Shown here piece after piece: positions 9,751 through 45,972 of a stretch of DNA of 46,839 nt (its first letter is position 1; the number at the start of each line of letters is the position of its first letter). Origin of the DNA: Candidatus Xenobia bacterium (GTDB lineage: Bacteria; Vulcanimicrobiota; Xenobia; Xenobiales; QWHO01); contig BTUM01000064.1 in assembly GCA_045863235.1 (NCBI GenBank), forward strand, positions 1-46,839, given 5' to 3'. The notes beneath the pieces were generated by a model. It did not search any database and was not told the origin of the DNA. It was given only the letters and a program-made list of their open reading frames with translations. The position numbers were made by a program, and so were the translations under genes.

Positions 9751-9779
9751 AGTATAGGCAAATATATCCATACGGTCAA
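9751..9779 (-). promoter_or_regulatory. Sigma70-type promoter for a probably leaderless transcript
   Basis: TTGACC(9779-9774)-17 nt-TATACT(9756-9751), then 6 nt to the ATG at 9744, no SD. Confidence 0.75.
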
Positions 9780-9782
9780 TGT

Positions 9783-10140
9783 GTGTGCACGGAGTTGCCG
9801 GCACATGTGCCTGCATGTCCACGCACATCTCGGGGGTGGAGCCGGTGTGCACGGAGTTGCCGGCGCATGTGCCTGCATGTCCACGCACATCTTGGAGGTG
9901 GAGCCGGTGTGCACGGAGTTGCCGGCACATGTGCCTGCATGTCCGCGCACATTTCTGAGGGGCGAGCCGGTGTGCACGAAGTATGTGCCTAGCGTGTCCG
10001 CGCACATCTCTGGCGGAGCCGGTGTGCACGGAGTTGCCGGCGCATGTGCCTGCACGTCCACGCACATCTCGGGGGCGGAGCCGGTGTGCACGGAGTTGCC
10101 GGCGCATGTGCCTGCATGTCCGCGCACATCTCGGGGGCGG
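9783..10140. repeat. Tandem array of 6 copies of a ~62-bp double-hairpin repeat (array 1)
   Basis: Consensus GAGCCGGTGTGCACGGAGTTGCCGGCGCATGTGCCTGCATGTCCGCGCACATCTCGGGGGCG; units start at ~9783 (truncated), 9839, 9901, 9964 (internally deleted), 10016, 10078. Confidence 0.97.
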
Positions 10141-10143
10141 AAC

Positions 10144-11016
10144 TTACCCGACTGCCTTGTAGCCGGCCGCCCTACCGAGCTTGCTCCAGAAGCGGTCGAG
10201 GAAGTCGGGAGCGAGCAGGTCGTCCTCGGTCAGCTTGACCCGGGGAATCCTGATGGCCTTCTGACGCTTGTCGTCAAGCTTTGAGCAGTGATAAGGGCCG
10301 TCCACCTCGACGTTGAGCCAGACCAGGCGGTCGCTCAGGCGGACGCAGGCCAGAAAGTCCATCCGATAAGGGCCGGCGCTTGTCAGGACACGGACCTGGG
10401 GGAACAGGGCCACCAGAAACGGACCCTCGAGCACCAGGGCGGGCCAGAGCCGGTCGCCGACCACCTCGCCCGAGGGGTCCTCGAGGACAGGAAGGCTTCG
10501 CCAGCCGACTCGGGCCAGGCTCACGTAGCTGATGAGGGCCAGTTCCAGGAGCCTGAGCCAGGAGAGCATCTCCATCCCCGACCCGCAGCAGGCATAGCGC
10601 AAGAGGTCGGTGAGCGCTTTGCGTCCGAGCCGTTCGAGCGCAAGGGTCAAATACCGATTGTAGTGCTCAGGATAGACCTTGCGCGCAGCCCGCAGGCGTA
10701 CCCAGTTGTCGCGCTCGCGGTCTAGCCTGTAGCGGCCAGGTCGGGGGGAGAACCGCCTCCAGAGCGAGGTCATCAGCCACTCCGCCCAGCCTGCTTCAGC
10801 CGCCTGCAGGCACGAGCCACCTCGCAGCTCGAGCGGCGAGATTCCCAGAGCGCCAGCCAGGCGGACCACCTGAACGTCGCGCGGCGGGCGCGTGTTTCGC
10901 TCGAAGTGACTGATCTGGGCGCGGCTGACCCGGGCCCGCAGGGCCAGCTCCTTCTGGGTCCAGCCGCGCCTTCTGCGCTCTTGTCGCGGTCGAATGTGAA
11001 AAGGCATTCTGTCCAT
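10144..11016 (-). CDS. XRE-family HTH fused to a C-terminal DUF559/Vsr-like PD-(D/E)xK endonuclease-like domain
   Basis: RRRRGWTQKELALRARVSRAQISHFERNTRPP (HTH_3 pattern); PQVRV...YRMDFL...VEVDGPYH...DDKRQ (Q..Y..DF..E.DG..H..D..R pattern). Start may be 11007, 11016 or 11049. Confidence 0.75.
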   Translation of the reverse strand: MDRMPFHIRPRQERRRRGWTQKELALRARVSRAQISHFERNTRPPRDVQVVRLAGALGISPLELRGGSCLQAAEAGWAEWLMTSLWRRFSPRPGRYRLDRERDNWVRLRAARKVYPEHYNRYLTLALERLGRKALTDLLRYACCGSGMEMLSWLRLLELALISYVSLARVGWRSLPVLEDPSGEVVGDRLWPALVLEGPFLVALFPQVRVLTSAGPYRMDFLACVRLSDRLVWLNVEVDGPYHCSKLDDKRQKAIRIPRVKLTEDDLLAPDFLDRFWSKLGRAAGYKAVG

Positions 11017-11061
11017 GGCTTCATGATGCCAGCCAGGTATGAACCGCATGTCACCGTTCGG

Positions 11062-11088
11062 TTGCCAGGAGATTGCCCCGAGGTTGCC
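11062..11088. promoter_or_regulatory. Three TTGCC direct repeats at 11-bp spacing between divergent genes
   Basis: TTGCC at 11062, 11073 and 11084. Confidence 0.4.
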
Positions 11089-11099
11089 AAGTTTTGAAC

Positions 11100-12110
11100 G
11101 TGATCGAGATCGAGGGCGACCTGGAGGAGGGTGGGGGCCAGATCCTGCGGACTTCCCTGGCCCTCAGCGCCCACACGGGCAAGCCGTTCCGCATCCGGCG
11201 CATTCGGGCCCGGCGAAGCCCGCCCGGGCTGAAGGCCCAGCATCTGGCCGGGGTGCGGCTGGTGGAGCAGCTCACCCGGGCGGATGTGGAAGGGGCCCGT
11301 CCGGGCTCGACCGCGTTGACTTTCATCCCCACCCGCCAGGCGACGGGATCGCACCGCATCGACGTGGGCACGGCCGGTTCGGTGACGCTGCTGGCCCAGG
11401 CGGCCCTGCTGCCCTCGCTGACCTCGCTCCAGCCGGTCGAGCTCGAGCTCATCGGAGGCACCGACGTGGCCTGGGCGCCCCCGGTGGACTATCTCGCCCG
11501 GGTTCTCCTCCCCTACTACCGCCGCCTGGGTGAGGTGGAGCTGACCCTGGAGCGGCGCGGTTTCCATCCCAAGGGCGGGGGTCGCCTGCGCCTGAAAATC
11601 CAGGGCCAACCTTCCGAGCTGCCCCCGCTCTTGCTTGCAAGGCCCCCGAGCCTGAGCTGGCACGGCAGCTCGGTGGCCAGCCACGACCTGGCTCAACGCC
11701 GGGTGGCCGAGCGCCAGGCCGAGGCGGCCCGCGAGCTGTTGCCGGGCCTGGAGGTGGAATCTTCCTACGACCGCACCGGCTCGACCGGCTCGGTGCTGAC
11801 CCTGTGGGCCGCGGCAGAGAGCGCTCCCTGGCCTCTGCGGGTGGGAGCCGACCAGCTCGGGCGCAAAGGCCTGAGCGCCGAGGAGGTGGGCCGCAAGACC
11901 GCCAGCCTGCTCAAGCAGCGCCTGAGCCGGCCCCAGCCGGTGGAAGAGCACCTGGCCGACAACCTGATCCCCTTCCTGGGGCTCTTCGGCGGGCGCATCG
12001 CATGCCAGCAGGTAACTCCCCACACCAGGGGCAACGCCTACGTCGTGGAGCAGTTCTTGCCGGTTCGCTTCGAGATCTCTGAGCACGAGGTGGCATGCGC
12101 ACCTTCCTGA
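11100..12110 (+). CDS. rtcA: RNA 3'-terminal phosphate cyclase
   Basis: EGGGQILRTSLALS, IRARRSPPGLKAQHL, TAGSVTL, GGTDV..APP.DY, RGFHPKGGG, HLADNL, catalytic-region His in TPHTRGN. Confidence 0.93.
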   Translation: MIEIEGDLEEGGGQILRTSLALSAHTGKPFRIRRIRARRSPPGLKAQHLAGVRLVEQLTRADVEGARPGSTALTFIPTRQATGSHRIDVGTAGSVTLLAQAALLPSLTSLQPVELELIGGTDVAWAPPVDYLARVLLPYYRRLGEVELTLERRGFHPKGGGRLRLKIQGQPSELPPLLLARPPSLSWHGSSVASHDLAQRRVAERQAEAARELLPGLEVESSYDRTGSTGSVLTLWAAAESAPWPLRVGADQLGRKGLSAEEVGRKTASLLKQRLSRPQPVEEHLADNLIPFLGLFGGRIACQQVTPHTRGNAYVVEQFLPVRFEISEHEVACAPS

Positions 12111-24955: not shown

Positions 24956-25148
24956 CCGAAATGTGCGCGGACATGCAGGCACATGCGCCGGTAACTCCAT
25001 GCACACCGGCTCAGCCCCCCCGAAATGTGCGCGGACATGCAGGCACATGCGCCGGCAACTCCAGGCACACCGGCTCACCCCCCCGAAATGTGCGCGGACA
25101 TGCAGGCACATGCGCCGGCAACTCCACGCACACCGGCTCAGCCCCCCG
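24956..25148. repeat. Tandem array of 3 copies of the same ~63-bp repeat, inverted relative to array 1 (array 2)
   Basis: ATGTGCGCGGACATGCAGGCACATGCGCCGG(C/T)AACTCCA..CACACCGGCTCA at 24961, 25025 and 25088; reverse complement of the array 1 unit. Confidence 0.97.
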
Positions 25149-28763: not shown

Positions 28764-29833
28764 TCAGGCCCGGGTCAGCTTGCGGGCCGCCTCGGCCCAG
28801 CCCGTTTCGGCGGCGAAAGCGGTCTCGCCGTAGGCAGAGCCTTCCCGGGCAGCCGCCTCGGGGTCGAGCTCGATCTGCAGCCCGTGGGCCCCGGGATGTG
28901 TGGGGCCGTGCTGCTCGGCCAGCACAGCCTGCTCCAGAGTGCGCTGAACCTGCTGGCAGGCCTGCCGCAACCGGTCGTCCTGACCGGCGCGCTGCTCGAT
29001 CTGCCGGGTCAGGTCGTAAACGTCCTTGTATTGCCAGAAGGTCTGGGTCGCGCCGGCGGCCCCGCTCAGGTCGCAGGAAGTGGCCAGCACCGCCTGGCCA
29101 AGCTCTTTGACGGCCAGGCTGACCGCTCCGACCCGGCTCAAGTCGATGGCGGCCGAGGTGGGGATCTCCTCCCTGGGCCCCTGCGAGGCCAGCGCCACCA
29201 CGCGGCGGGCCAGCTCGGCCGGAGAATGGTCCATGTCTTGCAGAAGACGGTCATAGGGCAGGCCCAGGTAGCCCATCTCCTCCTCGGAGCCGATCATGAT
29301 GCCGGCCTCGTCGCGCAGCTGGTGGGCAACCTCCAGGCTGCCCATGTAGCAACAGTCGAAACTCAAGAGGTCCAGTTTGCGCCCGGTGGCCTCGCGGGCC
29401 AGCTGCAGCCCTTGTGGAGGTCGGGCAGGCTCATCCAGTCCTCGTGCCCGTCGTCCTGGCAGGCTCCCTTCCAGGCCTCGCCGTGGTCGGAAACCACCAA
29501 CCAGTAATTCTCGGCCGGGTAGTTCTTCATCCCCCACTGAATGAAGTCGGCCAGGGCCTCGGGGCGGGACATGCTGATCTCGCCCAGATCCATCTTGACC
29601 GGGGAGCGCAGGCCGGGCTGGTCGTCCGGGGCCAGCTCCAGCCGCTGCACGGTGCGGGGGCCGGCCGGATCAGGGTTGAGCCGGTGGTCGAGCTGGGCCA
29701 CCATCTGAAAGGTGTCCGAGCAACCCACCTTTTCCGCTTCGTCCAGATCGCCCACCTGATAGGCATACAGATCATTGTCGGAAGCCGACCAGACCATGAC
29801 CGTCCACTTCTTGAGGGGAGCTATCGCCTGCAT
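28764..29833 (-). pseudogene. Clostripain-family (C11) cysteine peptidase split by a 1-nt frameshift near 29410
   Basis: Upstream frame: WTVMVW..SDNDL, YPAENY.LVVSDHG (catalytic His). Downstream frame: LDLLSFDCCYMGSLEV (catalytic Cys), SEE. Confidence 0.8.
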
Positions 29834-37035: not shown

Positions 37036-40000
37036 TTGGCCAAGAACTTGAGAGGAAATCCACCGGGCGACGACCTGATCGAGACTCGCCCGCGCCGGTC
37101 GTCGCGGGGTTCCGCTGCGGCCTCCTCTCCTGCTGCCCTGACAGCCGAAGAGCTTCAGCAAGCTCTGCGCGACTCCGAACGCCGCTACCGGAAGCTGGAG
37201 AAGCAGCTGGCCGAATCGCAAGAGCAAGCTCAGGGCCACGAGGCGACCGCTGAGAAACTCAAGAAAGCCCTGGTGGCCGCCCGACAAGAGCTCAAGCGCA
37301 CCGAGGAGACCGCCCAAAAATACTCCGAACGGGTCGAGAAACTGCAAGAGCGGCGCAAAGGCGCCAACATCGAGCTCGAGCAGACCCGTGGTGAGCTCGA
37401 GCAATCCCAGGCCCGCCTGGCCAAGGTAGAGGCCGCCTTCCAGCGGAGCGCCGAGCAACTCGAGGAGTTCCAATCGCAGATCGACGGCCTCTGCGATCAG
37501 CTCGACGAAGCTTACAACGAGCTGAGCCTGCTCCAGGAGCAGATGGCCGAGAAGGAGGGCCAGGCCACCGGCGAGCTGCAGAGCCGCCTGGCGGAGCTCG
37601 AGAGCCAGCTCAGCTCGCGCGAGGCCCGCCTGGGCGAGCTGCAGGAGAGCCTGAGTCAGCGCGAGACCAGCATCCACCAGCTGGAAGAGGAGGTGGCGCG
37701 CGTTCAGGCCCTGCTGCGCGAGAGCCAGCTCGACAGGGAATCCCAGGAAGAGAAACTGGCACTCCTCGAGCAGCGCCTGGAGGCCAAAGAGCGCCAGGCA
37801 GAAGCGCTGGAAACGAGCCGCTTCGAGCTGGAAGTCGCCCTGATCAACCTCCAGGGTGAGCTGAACGAAGGCCAGATCGACGCTCGACGGCGGCTGGCCC
37901 AGCTGGAGGCCCAGACGGGCAGTCGCATCCAGGCCCTGGAGGTGCTGGCCCGCGAGCGCGAGGAGCGCATCCAGGTTCTGGAGCGCTCCATGATGGAGGC
38001 CAGCCTGGTCATGGAGCAGGCCGAGCGGCTCATCGGCGGCCTGGAGACCGTGCGCGACCGCTCCCAGGAGAGGGTGCAGGGCCTGGAGCAGTGCCTGGTG
38101 GAGGCCACTACCGTGATGACCTCCGCCAGCCTGCGTCTGGACGGTTTGGGGACTTATCTCAACGAGGCCAGCCTGGTGATGAGCGCCTCGGATCGCGCCC
38201 TGGCCAACCTGGGGGGCCAGATCAGCGGTCTGGAGCTGGTGCTGGCCGAAGCCCAGGAGGAGGCCGCCCAGCGAGCCATCGAGCTGGACGCCCTGGAGCA
38301 GAACCTGGCCTCGCGCCATCAAGACATCCATCGTCTGGACCAGCGGGTGGCCGAGTTGCTGGGTGCCATCGATCAACGCGACGAGAGCCTGGCGGTGGTC
38401 AACGAGAACCTGTTGCGCACCTCCGAGCAGGCCAGCGACCTCAAAGCCCGGCTGGAGGCCAGCGCCAACGTCAACGTCGAGCTGAGCGGGCGCCTCTCGA
38501 TCCGCGACAGCCGCATCCGGGTGCTCAACGAGGCCAACGACACCCTGCAACTCGAGCTCTACGAGTCGCGCATGCTGATCGCCGAGCTGGAGCAGCAGCT
38601 CGAGGAGGCACGGGCCGAGCTGGCTGGCTCCAAGCAACAGATCGGCGAGTTGGAGGCCCTGCTGGCCGAGCGCGAAGACGAGATCGGCCAGCTGCAGCAC
38701 GCCCTGGACGAGGCCGGAGCCGAGTCGGTGGCCCTGGCCGAGCGGGTGGCCGAGCTCTCGGCCCTGCACGAGGCCGAGCAGGCTCGGGCTGCAGGCCTTC
38801 AGCAGGAGCTGACCAGCACCACCCGCCAGCGCGAAAACGCCCGCGAGGAGGCCTCCGAGCTGGAATCGGCCCTGCACGAAATGCAGGATACGCTGGAGGC
38901 GACGCGCCACGACCTGGAGAGCGAACGCGCTCAGCTGGCCCAGGCCAGCTCCGAGGTGACGCGACTGGAATCGCGGCTGAGCGCTCGCGAGCAAGAGCTC
39001 CAGGCCACCACCGACCAGCTGGGGCACTTCTACAAGCTCAACGCCGAGCAAGAGAAGAAGCTCGCCACCCGCGAAGGCCGCATCAAACTGCTCGAGCAAA
39101 AGCTGCAGAAGGTCGTGGCCGAGCTGCTCAAGAGCCGCCAGAAGGTGACCGGGCTCGAGCAAGAGGTCAAGGGCCGGGCCCAGCGCATTTTCCAGGTCGA
39201 GTCCGAGCTCAAGGCTCAAAACGAGAAGGTGGTCCGGCTCGAAAGCGAGCTGGCCCGGCTGGAAGAGCTCGAGAACGAGATCACCCGGCTGCACCAGAGC
39301 CACGACGAGCTGGAGGGCTCGCTCAACCGCTCGCGCGAGCAGGCCGAAGACCTGTCCGATCAGTTGGAGATCGCCCGCCAGCAAGTGGTGGAGCTGGACG
39401 AGCAGCTTTCCTCGGCCCAGGCCGACGCGGATGCCACCCGCCAGCGGCTCGAGCAAGCCCAGAGCGAGCTGGAGGGGTCCATGGCCCGGGCCCAGCAGCT
39501 CGACCAGGATCTCGGCCGGGCCCGCCAGGAGCTCGAGCAGGCGCGCGAGCGCGAGACGGTCACCCAGATGCAGGTCCAGAGCCTGGAGGAGGGCATCCTC
39601 GAGCTGGAGTCGGCCCTGCACGACCTCAATGCCGAGTCCGAGAAGGACAAGGAGAGCATCCAGGCGCTGGAGATCGAGCTGGCCGAGCGTCGAGCCGAGC
39701 GCGAGCGCCTGGCCGCCGAGCTCGAGCAGGAGCAGGAGCGCCGGGGGGTGTCCGACAGCCAGGTGACCGCCCTGGAAGAGACCGTGGGCGAGCTGGAGAC
39801 AACGCTCTACGATCAGCGCTCCGAGCTTTCCGAGGCTCGCGGCCAGCTCGAGCAGAGCCGCGCCCGGGTCGAGTCGCTCGAGCAACAGCTCGTCGCGCTG
39901 GAAGGCTCCACGGCCGAGCAGGTGGCCCAGTTCTACAAGCTGACGGGCGAGCAAGAAAGAAAGATCGAAGAGCGCGATCTCAAGTTGCGGGCCCTGGCCC

Positions 40001-43000
40001 AGAAGCTGGTGCAGACCAGCAACGCCCTCAAGAAGTCGCAAACCGAAGGCGAGACGCGCGCCCGCCAGCTGACCCAGCTGGCCCAGGCCCTGGACGCTCG
40101 CAACAAGTCGTTGCACGAGACAGAAGAGCAGCTCACCGAACTGGACAACCTGCTCAACGAGCGCCAGGAGCACCTGGAGGTGCTGGAAAGCCAGCTGGCC
40201 GAGTCGCAGAGCGAGCAGGAGGGGCTCCGCGAGCGGGCTCATCAGCTGGAGGAGCAGCTCGGCGAGCAGAAGGGCTTGATGGAACTCTTCCAGACCGAGC
40301 TCGACGAGCAGCGGGGCAAGCTCGATGCCCAGGCGACCGAGCTCGAGCAACGCGCTTACCAGCTCGAAGAGGAGACCACGCGCCGCGAGCTGATCGAGGC
40401 CGAGCTGGAGGAGACGCAGGCCGCCCGAGCCGAGCTGGAGAGCCGCCTGGCCGGTCTGGAGCAAGAGCTTAGCCGCGAGCGCGCTCAACTCGCGCAGCTG
40501 AGCGAGCAAATGGAAACCGAGCGCGAGCGCCGCTCGCTCTCTGAAGAGCAGGTCTCCGAGCTGGAAGTGGCCCTGGGCGACTTTGAGCAGGACCTGAGCA
40601 AGGAGCGCCTGGAGCACAACCGGGCCGCGGCCCGGGTCGCCGAGCTGGAGGCTCAGCTGGCCAGCACCCAACAGCAGCTGGCCGATTTCTATCGCCATCA
40701 GCAAGAGCAAGAGAAGAAGCTGGAGGTGCGCGACAGCCAGATCAAGGCGCTGGCGGCCCGGGCCCAGCAGACCGAGGAACGGCTGGTGGCCAGCGAGACC
40801 CGCCTCAAAGAGGTGGAAGGGGCTCTGATTGAGCGCTCCCAGTACACCAGCGCCCTGGAAGTCGACCTCAAGAAGATCAAAGTGGCCCTGGTGCAGCGTG
40901 CCCGCGGTCTGGAGGAGGCCGAGGGCCAGCTGGCCGAGATGGACCAGCTGCTCAACGAGCGCCAGGAGCAGCTCGATCACCTCAGCGGGGCCCTGGAGGA
41001 GGCGCGCACCCTGCACCAGCAGCTCGAGACCGAGCTGGAGGCCCGCATCGCCGATCTCCAGAGCAAGCTCGAATCCGAGCGCGAGCGCCGCGAGCTGGCC
41101 GACGAAACGGTGCAGGCCCTGGAGGTCTCCCTCAACGACCTGGAGAGCGATCTGGGCCAGGAGCGCCGGGGACATCGAGCCGTCAGCGAGCAGCTCTCCG
41201 AGCTGCAGGGCAGGTTCCAGGCCCTGGAAGAAGAGCTCGCTCAGTTCAAACGCCAGAACAGCGAGCAAGAGAAGCTCCTGGGCGTGCGGGATAACCGTAT
41301 CCACGCCCTGGAGAACAAGACCCGCGAGCTGGCGGAGAAACTGGTCTCCAGCAACGCCCGGGTCAAGGACCTGGACAACGGAGTCAACCAGCGCGAGCGC
41401 CAGATCGAGACCCTGGACGCCGATCTGAAGAAGATCAAGATCGCGCTGGTACAGAAGGCCCGGGGACTGGATGAGGCGGAGACACAGATCCGCGAGCTGA
41501 ATGCCCAGCTCAACGAACGCCAGGAGATGCTCGAGGCCCTGGAGATCTCTCTGGGCGAGTCGCAAAGCCAGCAACGCAGGCTGTCGGAGCGGCGCGACGA
41601 GCTGAGCCAGACGGTCGAGCGACTCGAGCACGAGCTGGAGACCCAGCGCGAGCACCGCCAGATGGCCGAGGAGCAGGTCGAGGCCCTGGAGGGCTCGCTG
41701 GCCGAGCTGGAGGACATGCTGTCCGACGAGCGGCGCAAGCTGACTGAGCGCAGCGAGGCGCTCAGTGCCTCCGAGCAGACTCTGGCCCGGGCGCTCGAGC
41801 GCGAGAGCGAGCTGAACCAGCGCGTCGAAGGCGTCCAGCAGCAACTGGCCGAGTTCTACAAGCTGACTCAGGACCAGGAAGGCAAGCTGGCCGACCGGGA
41901 CGCGCGGGTGGCCGCCCTGGAGCAGAGAGGGGCTCAGCTGGCCGAGGCGCTGGGAGCCGTGCAGGCCAAGAGCAAAGAGCTGGCCAGCCTGGTGGTGCAG
42001 AAAGACAGCGAGCTCAAGCGCGTCAAGATCGGCCTGGTCACCAAGGCTCGCGGGCTGGACCAGGCCGAACAGCGTCTCAAGGCGCTGGAAGAGGATCTGC
42101 GCCAGCGCGAGGAGCGGTTGGGAGCGCTGGCCGAGGACTTGCGGGCCTCGGCCCGGGCCCACGGTGAGTTGAGTGAGCGCAGCCGCGAGCTGGAGGCCGA
42201 GCTGGAGGCTCGCTCCGAGCAGTTGAGCCGGGTCACTGGAGATCTGGCCTCCGAGCGCGAGCAGCGCCAGGTGGCCGAGGAAACCGTGACCGCCCTGGAA
42301 GTCGCCCTGTCCGAGCTGGAAGGCGAGCTCTCGGGCGAGCGCAAACGGCTGGCCGCGCGCGAGGTCGAGCTCAAAGAAAGCGCTTCCCAGCGCGAAGCCG
42401 AATTGAACGCTCGGCTCGGAGCGCTGGCCGAGGAGCTGGAGCAAACCCGCAGCGAGCTGGGCGAGCAGGTTGCCTCCCGCGACCTGCGCATCAAGAGCCT
42501 CGAGCAGAAGACCATGCAGGTGGTCGAGAAGCTCAAACAGACCGCGGCCCGGGCCAGCGAGCTGGAAAGCGAGCTGAAGACCCGCAACGAGGCGGCCGAG
42601 CAGCTCGAGGAGGCCCTCAAGGCCCTGCGCGGCGTGCTGGAGGACCGCCAACAGCAGCTTGCCCGCATGCACAAGGAGCTGGAGGCCAGCCGGGCCCAGA
42701 ACCTGAGCCAGCAGCGTCAGCGCGAAGAGCTGGAGAGCTCGCTGCAACTCCAGACCTCGGAGCTGGCCGGCGAGCGCGAGCAGCGCCAGGTGGCCGAAGA
42801 TCAGGTCACCGCCCTGGAAGCGGCCCTGGCCGAGCTGGAGGGGGAGCTGGCTGGCGAGCGCAAGCGATTTGCCAGCGAGAGCAGCCAGTCTTCCCAGCGC
42901 GAATCCGAGCTGGCCGAGCAGGTGGAGGAGCTGGCCAACGAGCTGCAACGGGTCGAGGAGGCTCGTCGCGGCGAGAAGCGCGAGCGGGTCGAGCTGGAAA

Positions 43001-45972
43001 CCCTGCTGGCCTCGCGCGAGAGCCGCATCAAGAGCCTGGAGCAGAAGACCCTGCAGGTTCTAGACAAGCTCAAGCATAGCTCAACCCGCGTGAACGAGCT
43101 GGAGGGCCGGGTCAAGGTGGCCGAGCGACTGGAGGTCGAGCTGACCGAGTTGCGCGCCGAGCTGTCCCAGAAGTCCGCCGAGCTGAGCAAGACGCGCGAG
43201 CAGCTGGCCGAGCTGGAAGCCAACCTGGCCCGCCAGGAGGCCCTCAGCCGGACCGCAGCCGAGGAGTTGCGCGAGAAGCTCACCGAGAGCGGTCAGGAGC
43301 TGGAGACCCGCTCAGCCCTGTTGCGCGAGCTGACCGCCGAGCTGGCGGCCGAGCGCGAGCACCGCCAGCTGGCCGACGAGCAGGTACTGGCCCTGGAGCA
43401 GGCCATGGCCGAGCTGGAAACCGACCTGGCCGCCGCCCGGCACGGCTCGGCCGAGCAGGCCGAGGTGGAGAGCGGCCTGCGCTCGCAGATCAGGCAATTG
43501 ACGGCCTCCCTGGACCACCTGGAAAAGGAGCGTCAGGCCGGCGAGCTCGAGCGCGAGCAGCTCAAAGAGGTTGTGAGCGCCCGCGAGACGCGCATCAAGA
43601 GCCTGGAGCAGAAGACGCTGCAGGCCCTGGAGAAGCTCAAACAGACCAATGCCCTGGTGCGCGACCAGGAATCCCGGCTCAAGGCCGCAACCAGGCAGGA
43701 CGAGGCTCGCCAGGCCACCTTGCAGAAGCTGGAGGTGGAGCTGGAGGAGCTGCGCCAGGAGCTCTCGCGGCGCGGCCACGAGCTCGAGCAGAGCCAGGAG
43801 CGTCTGCGCCAGACCGAGAGCTCTCTCGAGAGCACCAGGGCCGAGTCGGAGCAGCTGCGCAGCGAGCTCACCAGCGAGCTGCAGAATCGGTCGGGAGAGC
43901 TGAAAGACCGGGCCCAGCAACTGCTCGGGCTGCAAACCGACCTGCGTCAGGAGCGCGAGCAGCGGCAACTGGCCGAAGAGCAGGTGCTGGCGCTGGAGCA
44001 CGCCCTGGCCGACACCGAGACCCAGCTGCGCCGAGCCCAGGGCATCAACCGCGAGCACGAGACGCGCCAGCAAGATGCGCTGGGCGACTTTGACCGACAG
44101 CGCCGCCAGTTCGAAGGCCGCCTGCATGACCTGGCCCAGGAGCGAGAGGAGCTCCAGTCCCGCCTGACCGAGCTGGAGGGCGAGCGAGCCGGGCTGGCCG
44201 CGCAGCTTCGCCAGGGCCAGAGCGAGCGAGACGAGCTCCAGACGCGCCTGGCCAATCTGGAGACCCAGGTGAAGGCCACTTCGGACCAGTTGGGCGAGTT
44301 TTACAAGCTGACCCAGGAGCAAGAGAAGCAGCTGGCCGAGCGCGACCTGCGCATCAAGGCGCTGGAACTTCGCGGCAGCGAGGTGGAGACACTCAAAAAG
44401 CAGAGCAATCAGCTGAAGGCGCGCCTGGTGCAGGCTTTGCGCGAGCTGAAAGAGACCCGGGCCGAGAGCGACAAGCTGCAGAGCGAGCTGAGCGAAACGC
44501 GCCGACTCAGCGCTGAGCAGCGAGCGCAGCGTCAAAAGCTTGAAACGACAGGAACCGAGCAGCTGGCCCAGCTGGAGCAGGAACGCGACCGCTCGCTGGC
44601 CCGGGTGCAGGAGCTGGAAGTGGAGGTCGCCCACCAGACCCGTCGGGCCGCCGAGCTCAGCACCGAGCTGAGCCGGCGCAACGCCCAGGCGGCCGAGCTG
44701 AGCGAAGAGCTGCAGGAGCGGGTCGGTCTGCAGGCTGAGCTCGAGCAGGCCCGCGAGACGATCAAGCTGATGAAGAGCGAGCAGCGCGACCTGCTCGAGG
44801 CCCGGTCCGAGTATGAACGAGAGCAGGTCGAGCTAGAGCGACGCGCTCACGAGCTGGCCGACCAGCTGGCCGACCGCGAACGTCAGCTCGAGCGCCTGGA
44901 GCTCGACCTGAAGAGACTTGGCCAGGCGGAGGACCGGGAAACGCTCGCCCTGGGCCGGGTGCTGAAGCTCGAGAAAGCACTCGAGCAGCTCAACCGGAAC
45001 CTGGCCTCGAGCAACCTGCGGGTGCGTGAGCTGGACGGCGCGTTGACCCAGCGCCAGCAAGAGAAGCTCGGGCTGGAAGAGCGACTGAGCGAGCGCCAGC
45101 GAGAGGTCAACGACCTGGCCAACCGGCTCAGCCAGGCCAGTGAAGCCCGGCTGCTCCTGGAGGCCGAGCTCGAAGAGCTGCGCCACCACTCATCGAGCGC
45201 GCGGGAAGAGCAGGCCAGGGTTTCCTTGCTCGAACGTCAGCTGAGCGACCGCGATCTCCGTCTGGCCGACCTCGAAAAGCAGCTGCGCGAGCGTTCCAGT
45301 GAGCTGGGCGAGCTTCAGGCCGAGATCTTGACCCTGCGCTCGCAGTCGGCCGGAGCCCGCAACAAACAGCAACAGGTGGAATCGGCTCTGGGTGAGCGAG
45401 TGGACGAGCTGCAACGCCAGGTCAGCCGTCTGCGCAACCAGCTCGAGGAGAACGAGCGCGAGTCGCGCGACCGGCTGGAGAAGCTGCACACCGCCCAGAA
45501 GCGCCTGAACGAGTTGGAGCAGCGCCAGGAGGAAGCCACCCGTCTGGAGTCCAGCGTGGGGGCCATGCAGACCAAGCTGCGTACGGCCGCCCAGGCCCTG
45601 ACCCAGGTCAAGCAGGAGCTGCAGAGCAAGGATCAGCAGCTCGATGACTCGGAAAGGGCCCGCCGCGAGATGGAGCAGACTCTGAAGCGCCGCAGCCAGG
45701 ACGTGGAAGAGCTCGAGAAGCAGGTCCTGGAGTTGACCGAACGTGCTTTTCAAGTCTCGGAGCAAGAAAGTGACGCCGCCCGGGCGCGCGAGAAGTTAGC
45801 CGCCCTGGAAGGCGAGCTGGCCGCCAGCCGCGAGCGCGAGGAGCGGCTGAAGGAGCAAGTGGAAGCCAGCCGAAGCACCGACATGGTACCGCGTCAGGAG
45901 CTGGAGAATCGCGACCGGCAGATCCGGGTTCTGGCAGCCAAGCTGCGCGAGACCATGAAGCGCAACAAGTAA
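37036..45972 (+). CDS. Giant (2978 aa) repetitive coiled-coil protein
   Basis: E/L/Q/R/A-dominated heptads, host-like codon usage, recurring long repeat modules; no Walker motifs, TM or signal peptide seen. Confidence 0.92.
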   Translation: MAKNLRGNPPGDDLIETRPRRSSRGSAAASSPAALTAEELQQALRDSERRYRKLEKQLAESQEQAQGHEATAEKLKKALVAARQELKRTEETAQKYSERVEKLQERRKGANIELEQTRGELEQSQARLAKVEAAFQRSAEQLEEFQSQIDGLCDQLDEAYNELSLLQEQMAEKEGQATGELQSRLAELESQLSSREARLGELQESLSQRETSIHQLEEEVARVQALLRESQLDRESQEEKLALLEQRLEAKERQAEALETSRFELEVALINLQGELNEGQIDARRRLAQLEAQTGSRIQALEVLAREREERIQVLERSMMEASLVMEQAERLIGGLETVRDRSQERVQGLEQCLVEATTVMTSASLRLDGLGTYLNEASLVMSASDRALANLGGQISGLELVLAEAQEEAAQRAIELDALEQNLASRHQDIHRLDQRVAELLGAIDQRDESLAVVNENLLRTSEQASDLKARLEASANVNVELSGRLSIRDSRIRVLNEANDTLQLELYESRMLIAELEQQLEEARAELAGSKQQIGELEALLAEREDEIGQLQHALDEAGAESVALAERVAELSALHEAEQARAAGLQQELTSTTRQRENAREEASELESALHEMQDTLEATRHDLESERAQLAQASSEVTRLESRLSAREQELQATTDQLGHFYKLNAEQEKKLATREGRIKLLEQKLQKVVAELLKSRQKVTGLEQEVKGRAQRIFQVESELKAQNEKVVRLESELARLEELENEITRLHQSHDELEGSLNRSREQAEDLSDQLEIARQQVVELDEQLSSAQADADATRQRLEQAQSELEGSMARAQQLDQDLGRARQELEQARERETVTQMQVQSLEEGILELESALHDLNAESEKDKESIQALEIELAERRAERERLAAELEQEQERRGVSDSQVTALEETVGELETTLYDQRSELSEARGQLEQSRARVESLEQQLVALEGSTAEQVAQFYKLTGEQERKIEERDLKLRALAQKLVQTSNALKKSQTEGETRARQLTQLAQALDARNKSLHETEEQLTELDNLLNERQEHLEVLESQLAESQSEQEGLRERAHQLEEQLGEQKGLMELFQTELDEQRGKLDAQATELEQRAYQLEEETTRRELIEAELEETQAARAELESRLAGLEQELSRERAQLAQLSEQMETERERRSLSEEQVSELEVALGDFEQDLSKERLEHNRAAARVAELEAQLASTQQQLADFYRHQQEQEKKLEVRDSQIKALAARAQQTEERLVASETRLKEVEGALIERSQYTSALEVDLKKIKVALVQRARGLEEAEGQLAEMDQLLNERQEQLDHLSGALEEARTLHQQLETELEARIADLQSKLESERERRELADETVQALEVSLNDLESDLGQERRGHRAVSEQLSELQGRFQALEEELAQFKRQNSEQEKLLGVRDNRIHALENKTRELAEKLVSSNARVKDLDNGVNQRERQIETLDADLKKIKIALVQKARGLDEAETQIRELNAQLNERQEMLEALEISLGESQSQQRRLSERRDELSQTVERLEHELETQREHRQMAEEQVEALEGSLAELEDMLSDERRKLTERSEALSASEQTLARALERESELNQRVEGVQQQLAEFYKLTQDQEGKLADRDARVAALEQRGAQLAEALGAVQAKSKELASLVVQKDSELKRVKIGLVTKARGLDQAEQRLKALEEDLRQREERLGALAEDLRASARAHGELSERSRELEAELEARSEQLSRVTGDLASEREQRQVAEETVTALEVALSELEGELSGERKRLAAREVELKESASQREAELNARLGALAEELEQTRSELGEQVASRDLRIKSLEQKTMQVVEKLKQTAARASELESELKTRNEAAEQLEEALKALRGVLEDRQQQLARMHKELEASRAQNLSQQRQREELESSLQLQTSELAGEREQRQVAEDQVTALEAALAELEGELAGERKRFASESSQSSQRESELAEQVEELANELQRVEEARRGEKRERVELETLLASRESRIKSLEQKTLQVLDKLKHSSTRVNELEGRVKVAERLEVELTELRAELSQKSAELSKTREQLAELEANLARQEALSRTAAEELREKLTESGQELETRSALLRELTAELAAEREHRQLADEQVLALEQAMAELETDLAAARHGSAEQAEVESGLRSQIRQLTASLDHLEKERQAGELEREQLKEVVSARETRIKSLEQKTLQALEKLKQTNALVRDQESRLKAATRQDEARQATLQKLEVELEELRQELSRRGHELEQSQERLRQTESSLESTRAESEQLRSELTSELQNRSGELKDRAQQLLGLQTDLRQEREQRQLAEEQVLALEHALADTETQLRRAQGINREHETRQQDALGDFDRQRRQFEGRLHDLAQEREELQSRLTELEGERAGLAAQLRQGQSERDELQTRLANLETQVKATSDQLGEFYKLTQEQEKQLAERDLRIKALELRGSEVETLKKQSNQLKARLVQALRELKETRAESDKLQSELSETRRLSAEQRAQRQKLETTGTEQLAQLEQERDRSLARVQELEVEVAHQTRRAAELSTELSRRNAQAAELSEELQERVGLQAELEQARETIKLMKSEQRDLLEARSEYEREQVELERRAHELADQLADRERQLERLELDLKRLGQAEDRETLALGRVLKLEKALEQLNRNLASSNLRVRELDGALTQRQQEKLGLEERLSERQREVNDLANRLSQASEARLLLEAELEELRHHSSSAREEQARVSLLERQLSDRDLRLADLEKQLRERSSELGELQAEILTLRSQSAGARNKQQQVESALGERVDELQRQVSRLRNQLEENERESRDRLEKLHTAQKRLNELEQRQEEATRLESSVGAMQTKLRTAAQALTQVKQELQSKDQQLDDSERARREMEQTLKRRSQDVEELEKQVLELTERAFQVSEQESDAARAREKLAALEGELAASREREERLKEQVEASRSTDMVPRQELENRDRQIRVLAAKLRETMKRNK

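Follow-up and report, generated by a model that had tools for sequence, protein, structure and literature searches.

The window is the whole stretch of DNA analysed, 46,839 nt of contig BTUM01000064.1, and all positions are counted in it; its genome carries the label G000 and the relatives compared with it are G001 to G004. Between a Crp-family gene and rtcA, both intact and both assigned by Pfam, we found a cassette consisting of a gene and a repeat array (Table 1). The gene encodes a 290-aa protein with an XRE helix-turn-helix (HTH), a linker, a helical middle part and a predicted Vsr/DUF559-like nuclease domain. Its longest open reading frame spans 10144-11049 (minus), but the real start is likely the leaderless ATG at 11016, as judged from a promoter of fixed length that is common to the homologues.

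Table 1. Features of the cassette and of the second array in the window
Feature	Position	Strand	Remark
Family-conserved putative promoter region, 83 nt	11017..11099	minus
HTH-nuclease gene, 290-aa protein	10144..11016	minus	start from shared promoter spacing
XRE-family HTH, residues 11-64	10825..10986	minus	PF01381, E 2e-12
Predicted Vsr-like nuclease domain, ~residues 145-285	10162..10584	minus	conservation, Atlas lead, model and fold search
Cognate array	9783..10141	minus	62-nt head-to-tail units
Full 46-nt cores of the cognate array	9783-9828, 9845-9890, 9907-9952, 10022-10067, 10084-10129	minus
Orphan array, same family	24956..25147	plus	cores 24961-25006, 25025-25070, 25088-25133
Sigma-70-type promoter of the Crp-family gene	9751..9779	minus	host-owned, at the cassette edge; kept in cassette-free relatives

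The array (period 62, 5.9 copies) begins at the third base past the stop codon of the gene (TAA at 10144), and no terminator-like site was found between the two. Whole units recur at 83% match. Five have full cores, and a sixth, internally deleted, sits among the full ones. At its other end the array stops 3 nt short of the −35 of the Crp-family gene promoter. A second array of the same family (period 63, 3.0 copies) lies about 15 kb off without the gene, in opposite orientation and between two divergent gene starts; it is 87-94% complementary to the cassette array. Besides these two, the family has up to seven further loci in the genome. An earlier note on this DNA had described the array directly 3' of the gene, the gene-less second copy and the lodging of the cassette between unrelated crp-like and rtcA genes, and on all three points we agree.

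As that note had also stated, no cas, transposase or integrase family was found among the 40 window ORFs (12 + 28) searched against Pfam; nor was a DNA methyltransferase family. The window has no Rfam match, and no Rfam intron lies at the cassette. A contig of the independent public run X1 (10107-11866) carries the array end, the gene and rtcA in one piece. In run X1, one contig of a near-identical strain has a 1-nt deletion in the nuclease gene at window position 10692, and in the C88 paralogue of our genome the C-terminus is altered relative to the G001 orthologue. Such genes are often broken. Elsewhere in the window, a clostripain-family peptidase gene is split over two overlapping frames (28764-29833, minus), and an ORF of 2978 aa (37036-45972, plus), which contains repeats some 570 nt long, has no Pfam match at E 1e-5.

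The protein and its repeat

The structure model of the protein has a pLDDT of 92 over its whole length and 96 over residues 100-290. When the whole model was searched with Foldseek, the matches were to the HTH only (P22 c2, SinR and C proteins), and the nuclease part gave none at E 0.001. An exhaustive structural aligner run with the nuclease domain against 48161 chains placed the FASTKD4 RAP module (Z 7.4) among its top matches, every Z being below 8. NGO0050 (3hrl; Z 6.8, rmsd 2.5, 89 aligned), Bax1 (Z 6.5), I-Bth0305I (3r3p; Z 6.4, rmsd 2.9, 88 aligned) and Vsr (1cw0; Z 6.0, rmsd 3.5, 97 aligned) all stood within the top 8 of the 48161 chains, at Z 5.7-6.8. We take the FASTKD4 RAP module and NGO0050 to belong to the Vsr/DUF559 group.

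The residues marked in the nuclease domain are E149, Q207, D220, E237, D239, H243 and D248. In the alignment of 55 homologues D220 never varies, and R14, E39, E149, Q207, E237, G240, H243 and D248 are kept in at least 90%. A search of 1.84 billion representatives returned 582 matches at E 1e-30, which include multi-HTH proteins. Among the best 150 of the 582 matches, 123 have a length of 230-320 aa, and 115 of these 123 keep the putative catalytic residues D220, E237, D/N239, H243 and D248 together. We infer that these residues map one by one onto the EDxHD active site.

Profile searches gave little. The Pfam DUF559 profile (PF04480) reached 3 of the 55 members at E up to 0.1 (best E 0.018), below its curated cut-off, and had no match over the genome. 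NCBIfam, PADLOC and PHROGs yielded no family for the nuclease part (PADLOC matched 1 of 55 homologues at E 0.003, nothing of note), and a sequence search of solved structures with this part gave one irrelevant match at E 0.89. Atlas pointed to DUF559/MTES_1575 clusters at 0.90-0.92 with 138-164 shared features, which we treat as a lead only. Taken jointly, the fold, the residues and the Atlas lead point to a likely Vsr-like nuclease, which backs the nuclease fold that the earlier note had read from a motif.

Stand-alone copies of the nuclease domain of about 100 aa, with neither the conserved histidine nor the HTH, were also seen (L115, G000:C28:17145-17516; L103, G000:C15:32994-33344; L018, L022, L024, L025 and L036), some in genomes that have no full-length member. 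They are possibly domesticated or inhibitory.

The core of the window family is a 46-nt in-register pseudo-palindrome with 17 of 22 positions paired. Its plan is arm-12 nt-arm, twice per unit, with arms TGTGC/GCACA and the centre CATG, a centre found in five of the six families examined in this genome. In the other families the arms pair and the spacer halves hardly do so. The palindrome score exceeded that of shuffles in 18 of 38 units. Recurrent G:T positions were noted at pairs 3, 16 and 23; no compensatory changes were seen within the palindrome, where fixed mismatches persist. The earlier note had called the array one of hairpins, which is borne out in part only: one unit reached z −3.2 as RNA on the gene strand, five other folds gave −0.1 to −2.0, and the DNA folding z was only −0.03 to −2.2. 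The arms, inverted 5-6-mers in sites of 21-23 bp, resemble XRE operators, and an XRE HTH normally binds duplex DNA. Relative to transcription, orphans run 7 in the same and 12 in the opposite direction (p 0.36), with 7 loci between divergent starts. Because there is no compensatory pairing and no strand bias, and arrays occur on either side of the gene, the evidence favours duplex DNA sites over a functional RNA.

Arms and spacers also differ in how well they are kept. In the 25 units of the window family here, arm positions deviate from consensus by 3% and spacers by 12%, and in 16 units from G001, which has lost the gene by deletion, both deviate by 14%, in a contrast that covers one family and one genome pair with non-independent units.

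Nine gene-repeat pairs and their history

The genome (8.36 Mb, 166 contigs, 97.6% complete) holds nine paralogues of the nuclease, 20-60% identical. It also holds nine repeat families with 9, 6, 11, 8, 7, 12, 3, 2 and 19 loci (77 in total, in which loci at contig ends may count twice, C68 and C87 being one locus, and the C16 and C123 families are thin). There is zero overlap between families; as these were defined with gene flanks as queries, the cognate match holds by construction, whereas dispersal and non-overlap do not. Because of this origin, the product of the per-family adjacency shares was not used as a probability. Against calls of 7134 genes (89% coding), none of the 77 loci lies inside a called gene and two overlap a gene end. 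The window family occurs within 110 nt of 12 of the 7134 called genes, which is too rare for its place beside the nuclease gene to be put down to abundance, an objection that the earlier note had foreseen. No match to the Y1 transposase profile (PF01797) was found in the genome, the control being positive in 6 of 14.

A further extragenic palindromic family of 11 arrays (for example G000:C3:103843-104199) has no detectable cognate gene and is barely matched in four sister genomes. A tenth nuclease gene may be unassembled, many copies of this family being at contig ends. At G000:C39:383-3237 there are also period-72 arrays (7.5 + 31.5 copies) of CRISPR-like look, unrelated to the nuclease-repeat pairs.

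Among 151 genomes sampled from the phylum, 22 contain the nuclease family, all in the same class. A single genome can have as many as 18 matches, and no member was found in the small genomes of 2-3 Mb among those listed in this sample. A pattern scan of named genomes gave one weak match in the HTH region and was uninformative on range. We looked for arrays of period 40-130 and score 140 at most 250 nt from the gene at full-length loci, a subset of the matches. An array was adjacent at 36 of 65 and then 13 of 36 loci, that is at 49 of 101 homologue loci, which include orthologues and are non-independent. The controls were 1.2% for random windows, 25/966 for same-sized genes and 136/7134 for all genes, or 1.2-2.6%. 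By this strict rule 52 of the 101 loci are without an array; 12 of them lie near a contig end, and several have shorter or single units on inspection. The doubt raised in the earlier note, that homologues might lack adjacent repeats, is thus answered by nearly half of them. One clear exception is L070, an intact and constrained orthologue (dN/dS 0.14) with no evident repeat alongside.

In the homologues the array is downstream of the gene, upstream of its promoter or on both sides, and its sequence differs from gene to gene. Arrays stand downstream as often as upstream, and 12 loci are in convergent gaps. When 32 foreign arrays were compared with this genome, 4 matched a named family, and their proteins are 70-93% identical to that family's paralogue. 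The other 28, with proteins at most 52% identical, matched no named family, and two of them matched unnamed loci. Judged by these comparisons, repeat identity follows protein identity. The HTH as specificity domain was tried and rejected: Mantel tests over 35 protein-repeat pairs gave r of at most 0.085 and nothing significant without the closest 5%. In 8 orthologue or near-orthologue pairs dN/dS was 0.08-0.33, next to 0.20 for rtcA and 0.07 for crp, values that indicate purifying selection on the nuclease genes.

The crp-rtcA gap of the relatives records part of the history of the cassette. G004, the most distant congener, has neither cassette nor promoter boxes. G001 retains part of one repeat, a 5' gene piece and the promoter, and G002 the promoter boxes alone. 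A clean empty site in G001 or G002 was considered and rejected, since both carry deletion remnants, and the site is empty in G004 only. On the simplest account the cassette was gained once and deleted twice, though G004, the sole outgroup, may also have lost it cleanly. In the G004 gap a short run of 7-nt repeats is found in place of the cassette (L073, G004:C7:43652-43743).

The C54 gene occupies one site in all four of G000-G003, and the C70 and C88 genes are common to G000 and G001. In G002 (65% complete) the window and C88 cassettes are absent at their sites and neither repeat has a match; the C54 gene is retained there, with three C54 repeat matches. In G001 the window repeat persists without its gene (14 matches), at sites partly shared with G000 and partly not. 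The C54 gene is intact in G001, where two sites in common with G000 have the C54 repeats shortened and more degenerate as well. At the window's orphan site, one degenerate unit is left in G001, remnants in G003 and nothing in G002. More widely, orphan arrays at orthologous sites vary in unit number or are missing. A target-site duplication was sought and rejected: 2 of 39 internal loci scored at least 10, against 3.8% of mismatched flanks, and none at least 11. Two sites that seemed duplicated by eye revealed no pattern across loci.

From these comparisons, the cassette is inherited vertically and often lost by deletion. The earlier note had pictured an autonomous unit. Recent movement is not borne out, because the paralogues are diverged, the sites are the same in sister genomes, losses are by deletion and no target duplication was found.

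The putative promoter upstream of the gene has GTTCA/GGCAA-type boxes with a period of about 11 nt (11099, 11088, 11077, 11066, 11054 and 11044). A −10-like hexamer occupies 11028-11023, and the ATG follows after 6 nt. On the opposite side the promoter region abuts the start codon of rtcA at 11100. Of 55 upstream regions taken from other genomes, the 32 that have the distal box served to train a matrix. Genome-wide it gave 37 matches, with all nine paralogues among them. Other targets were comEC, a RecQ-like helicase, flagellar rod/hook genes, a macro-domain gene, and weak HicB-like and SpoVG-like genes; example matches in G000 are C12:109998, C1:346281, C61:44753, C26:58915, C27:79369 and C27:69548. 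This layout suggests a host regulator with 11-bp periodic boxes, and the 37 matches are possibly its regulon. In the part of PMC12907096 drawn on here, the direct repeat of Caulobacter LexA has the same 11-nt period, which is a resemblance only. A top-scoring promoter copy (G000:C13:98981-99136) runs directly into a 51-codon ORF unrelated to the HTH, perhaps a remnant, perhaps a small peptide under regulation. Five RNA-labelled runs (contigs only) gave patchy low cover that may come from DNA.

Interpretation of the pairs

The pairing of genes and repeats is well supported; the mechanism we infer. With modest confidence, we favour the reading that the cassette is one of nine nuclease-repeat pairs in which the nuclease attaches to its own repeat in duplex form and cuts it on occasion, with repair maintaining and spreading the repeat. 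Each protein would recognise its own family as double-stranded DNA and nick or cut it now and then. Once mended from other copies, the breaks would leave the recognised arms uniform and on rare occasions seed new extragenic sites. A dimer or a pair of dimers might do this, the HTH domains reading the four 5-nt arms and the nuclease domains meeting the central palindrome, a geometry that would resemble the I-Bth0305I dimer. Expression would be rare, through the host-regulated promoter common to comEC and the RecQ-like gene. Local tandem growth could occur by slippage or unequal recombination and may proceed without the enzyme, because in G001 arrays with altered arms are themselves triplicated. 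How a hydrolytic nuclease, as predicted here, would join strands is not evident, which counts against a role in spread.

Several other explanations have to be weighed. The arrays may be operators or decoys whose arms are bound by the HTH, so that they hold the enzyme or control promoters while the nuclease acts elsewhere, in the damage response, on incoming DNA or in defence. The operator-like arms, the array end next to the crp −35, the promoter pattern common to comEC and the RecQ-like gene, and strong purifying selection on the nuclease genes would all fit. However, arrays are downstream as often as upstream and also in convergent gaps, their copy number and presence vary between sister genomes, and PADLOC offers no family of note. 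Nor does this explanation provide a reason why each paralogue needs its own dispersed family, and we consider it unlikely. A protein that recognises an extruded or single-stranded hairpin and nicks G:T mismatches like Vsr, in a REP-like processing, is distinctly improbable. The imperfect in-register palindromes, above shuffles in about half of the units, the recurrent G:T pairs and the Vsr-like predicted fold are in its favour, but compensatory changes are absent, the spacer halves of other families hardly pair, DNA folding is weak and an XRE HTH is ordinarily a duplex binder.

The earlier note had also proposed a protein-RNA toxin-antitoxin or defence module, in which transcribed repeats would bind and neutralise the nuclease in a type III-like manner. 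That the array abuts the stop codon with no terminator-like site between, and that the best RNA fold is on the gene strand, would agree with it. We nevertheless give this proposal hardly any credence, since many homologues have the array upstream of the promoter, orphans have no strand bias and include loci between divergent starts, the repeat lacks covariation and an Rfam family, and intact genes without an array exist. It is also very improbable that the genes and repeats have no functional link, with another factor moving the repeats and dispensable genes marking the tolerated insertion sites. The 11-array family without a detectable cognate gene and the survival of the window repeat beyond its gene in G001 speak for this. 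Yet each paralogue has a different family with none common to two, repeat identity tracks protein identity, the genes are under purifying selection and the genome is without a RAYT.

A wider view, on balance doubtful, is that of a second and unrelated route to REP-like repeats. Vsr-like endonucleases guided by an HTH would form a large family, with perhaps a dozen or more of them in one genome. Each would propagate its own repeat through programmed breaks and their repair, and would be activated along with competence or damage genes, with a target of about 46 bp readable beside each gene. To our knowledge, the origin and spread of short extragenic repeats in bacteria have been explained only for families with a tyrosine transposase. 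In the present genome, which is without a Y1 transposase, each of the nine families has one partner from an unrelated class of enzymes. Nine proteins and nine repeats from one genome make the pairing directly testable. The pairs may be a source of endonucleases that have long sites and a modular DNA-binding domain and, if the wider view is true, offer a natural nuclease library with its target of about 46 bp legible from the DNA beside each gene.

Comparison with known systems

In type III toxin-antitoxin systems the tandem array acts as a structured RNA, and its place, upstream of the toxin, is fixed. The present system is like them in that a tandem array adjoins a nuclease gene. It differs in that the position is not fixed, dispersed orphans are unbiased in strand, covariation is missing and the predicted fold is that of a DNase. 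Unlike in CRISPR-Cas, whole 62-nt units repeat, there are no unique spacers, and cas genes are absent among the window ORFs.

In predicted fold and likely active-site set, the nuclease domain is like Vsr, NGO0050, Caulobacter VsrA (PMC12907096) and the MTES_1575 REase (PMC3710099), as far as the parts of these sources used here describe them. Vsr mismatch repair is characterised by a C5-methyltransferase gene nearby and by nicking at G:T. In comparison with Vsr/DUF559 nucleases, the present protein has an additional HTH and middle domain, and no methyltransferase gene accompanies the cassette in the window. The parts of PMC12907096, PMC3710099 and PMC9879509 used here cover the domains and mention no cognate repeat. 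The EDxHD homing endonuclease I-Bth0305I, according to the part of PMC3239194 used, is a homodimer that covers about 60 bp around a pseudo-palindrome, a footprint close to the unit length here, and it likewise joins an N-terminal DNA-binding part to a Vsr-like catalytic domain. EDxHD homing endonucleases as a group are borne by an intron, an intein or a split gene. In contrast to the group I intron-borne I-Bth0305I, which has NUMOD repeats and cuts the intron-less allele, the present gene is free-standing, with its own promoter, an XRE HTH and candidate sites in its own genome.

The closest parallel is with REPIN-RAYT (REPtron) and TIRtron systems. In the parts of two sources used here (bioRxiv 10.1101/2021.07.10.451892, PMC3733652), these consist of a gene passed on vertically and of short palindromic repeats, which stand at its flanks and also form extragenic families; a genome can hold several gene-repeat pairs, and the repeats are reported to decay after gene loss. 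The analogy with RAYTs and REPs drawn in the earlier note proved apt: here too, in nine pairs, cognate palindromic repeats flank a gene and are also scattered between genes elsewhere, and the gene is inherited vertically at a fixed site (C54 in G000-G003, C70 and C88 with G001, window remnants in G001 and G002). The enzyme class differs. A RAYT is an HUH/Y1 tyrosine transposase, with single-stranded hairpins as the substrate of its cleavage and strand transfer, whereas the present protein combines an XRE HTH with a predicted Vsr-like nuclease in a genome with no PF01797 match. The repeats differ as well: the 62-nt pseudo-palindromes have four arms and follow one another head to tail, and a family has 2-19 loci, not hundreds. 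The literature covered (mostly open-access full texts) contains no description of an HTH-Vsr/DUF559 gene with cognate repeats, and the nuclease-repeat system is real and apparently undescribed. Its newness lies in the list of parts, which no described system in that literature joins, and its logic parallels that of REPIN-RAYT.
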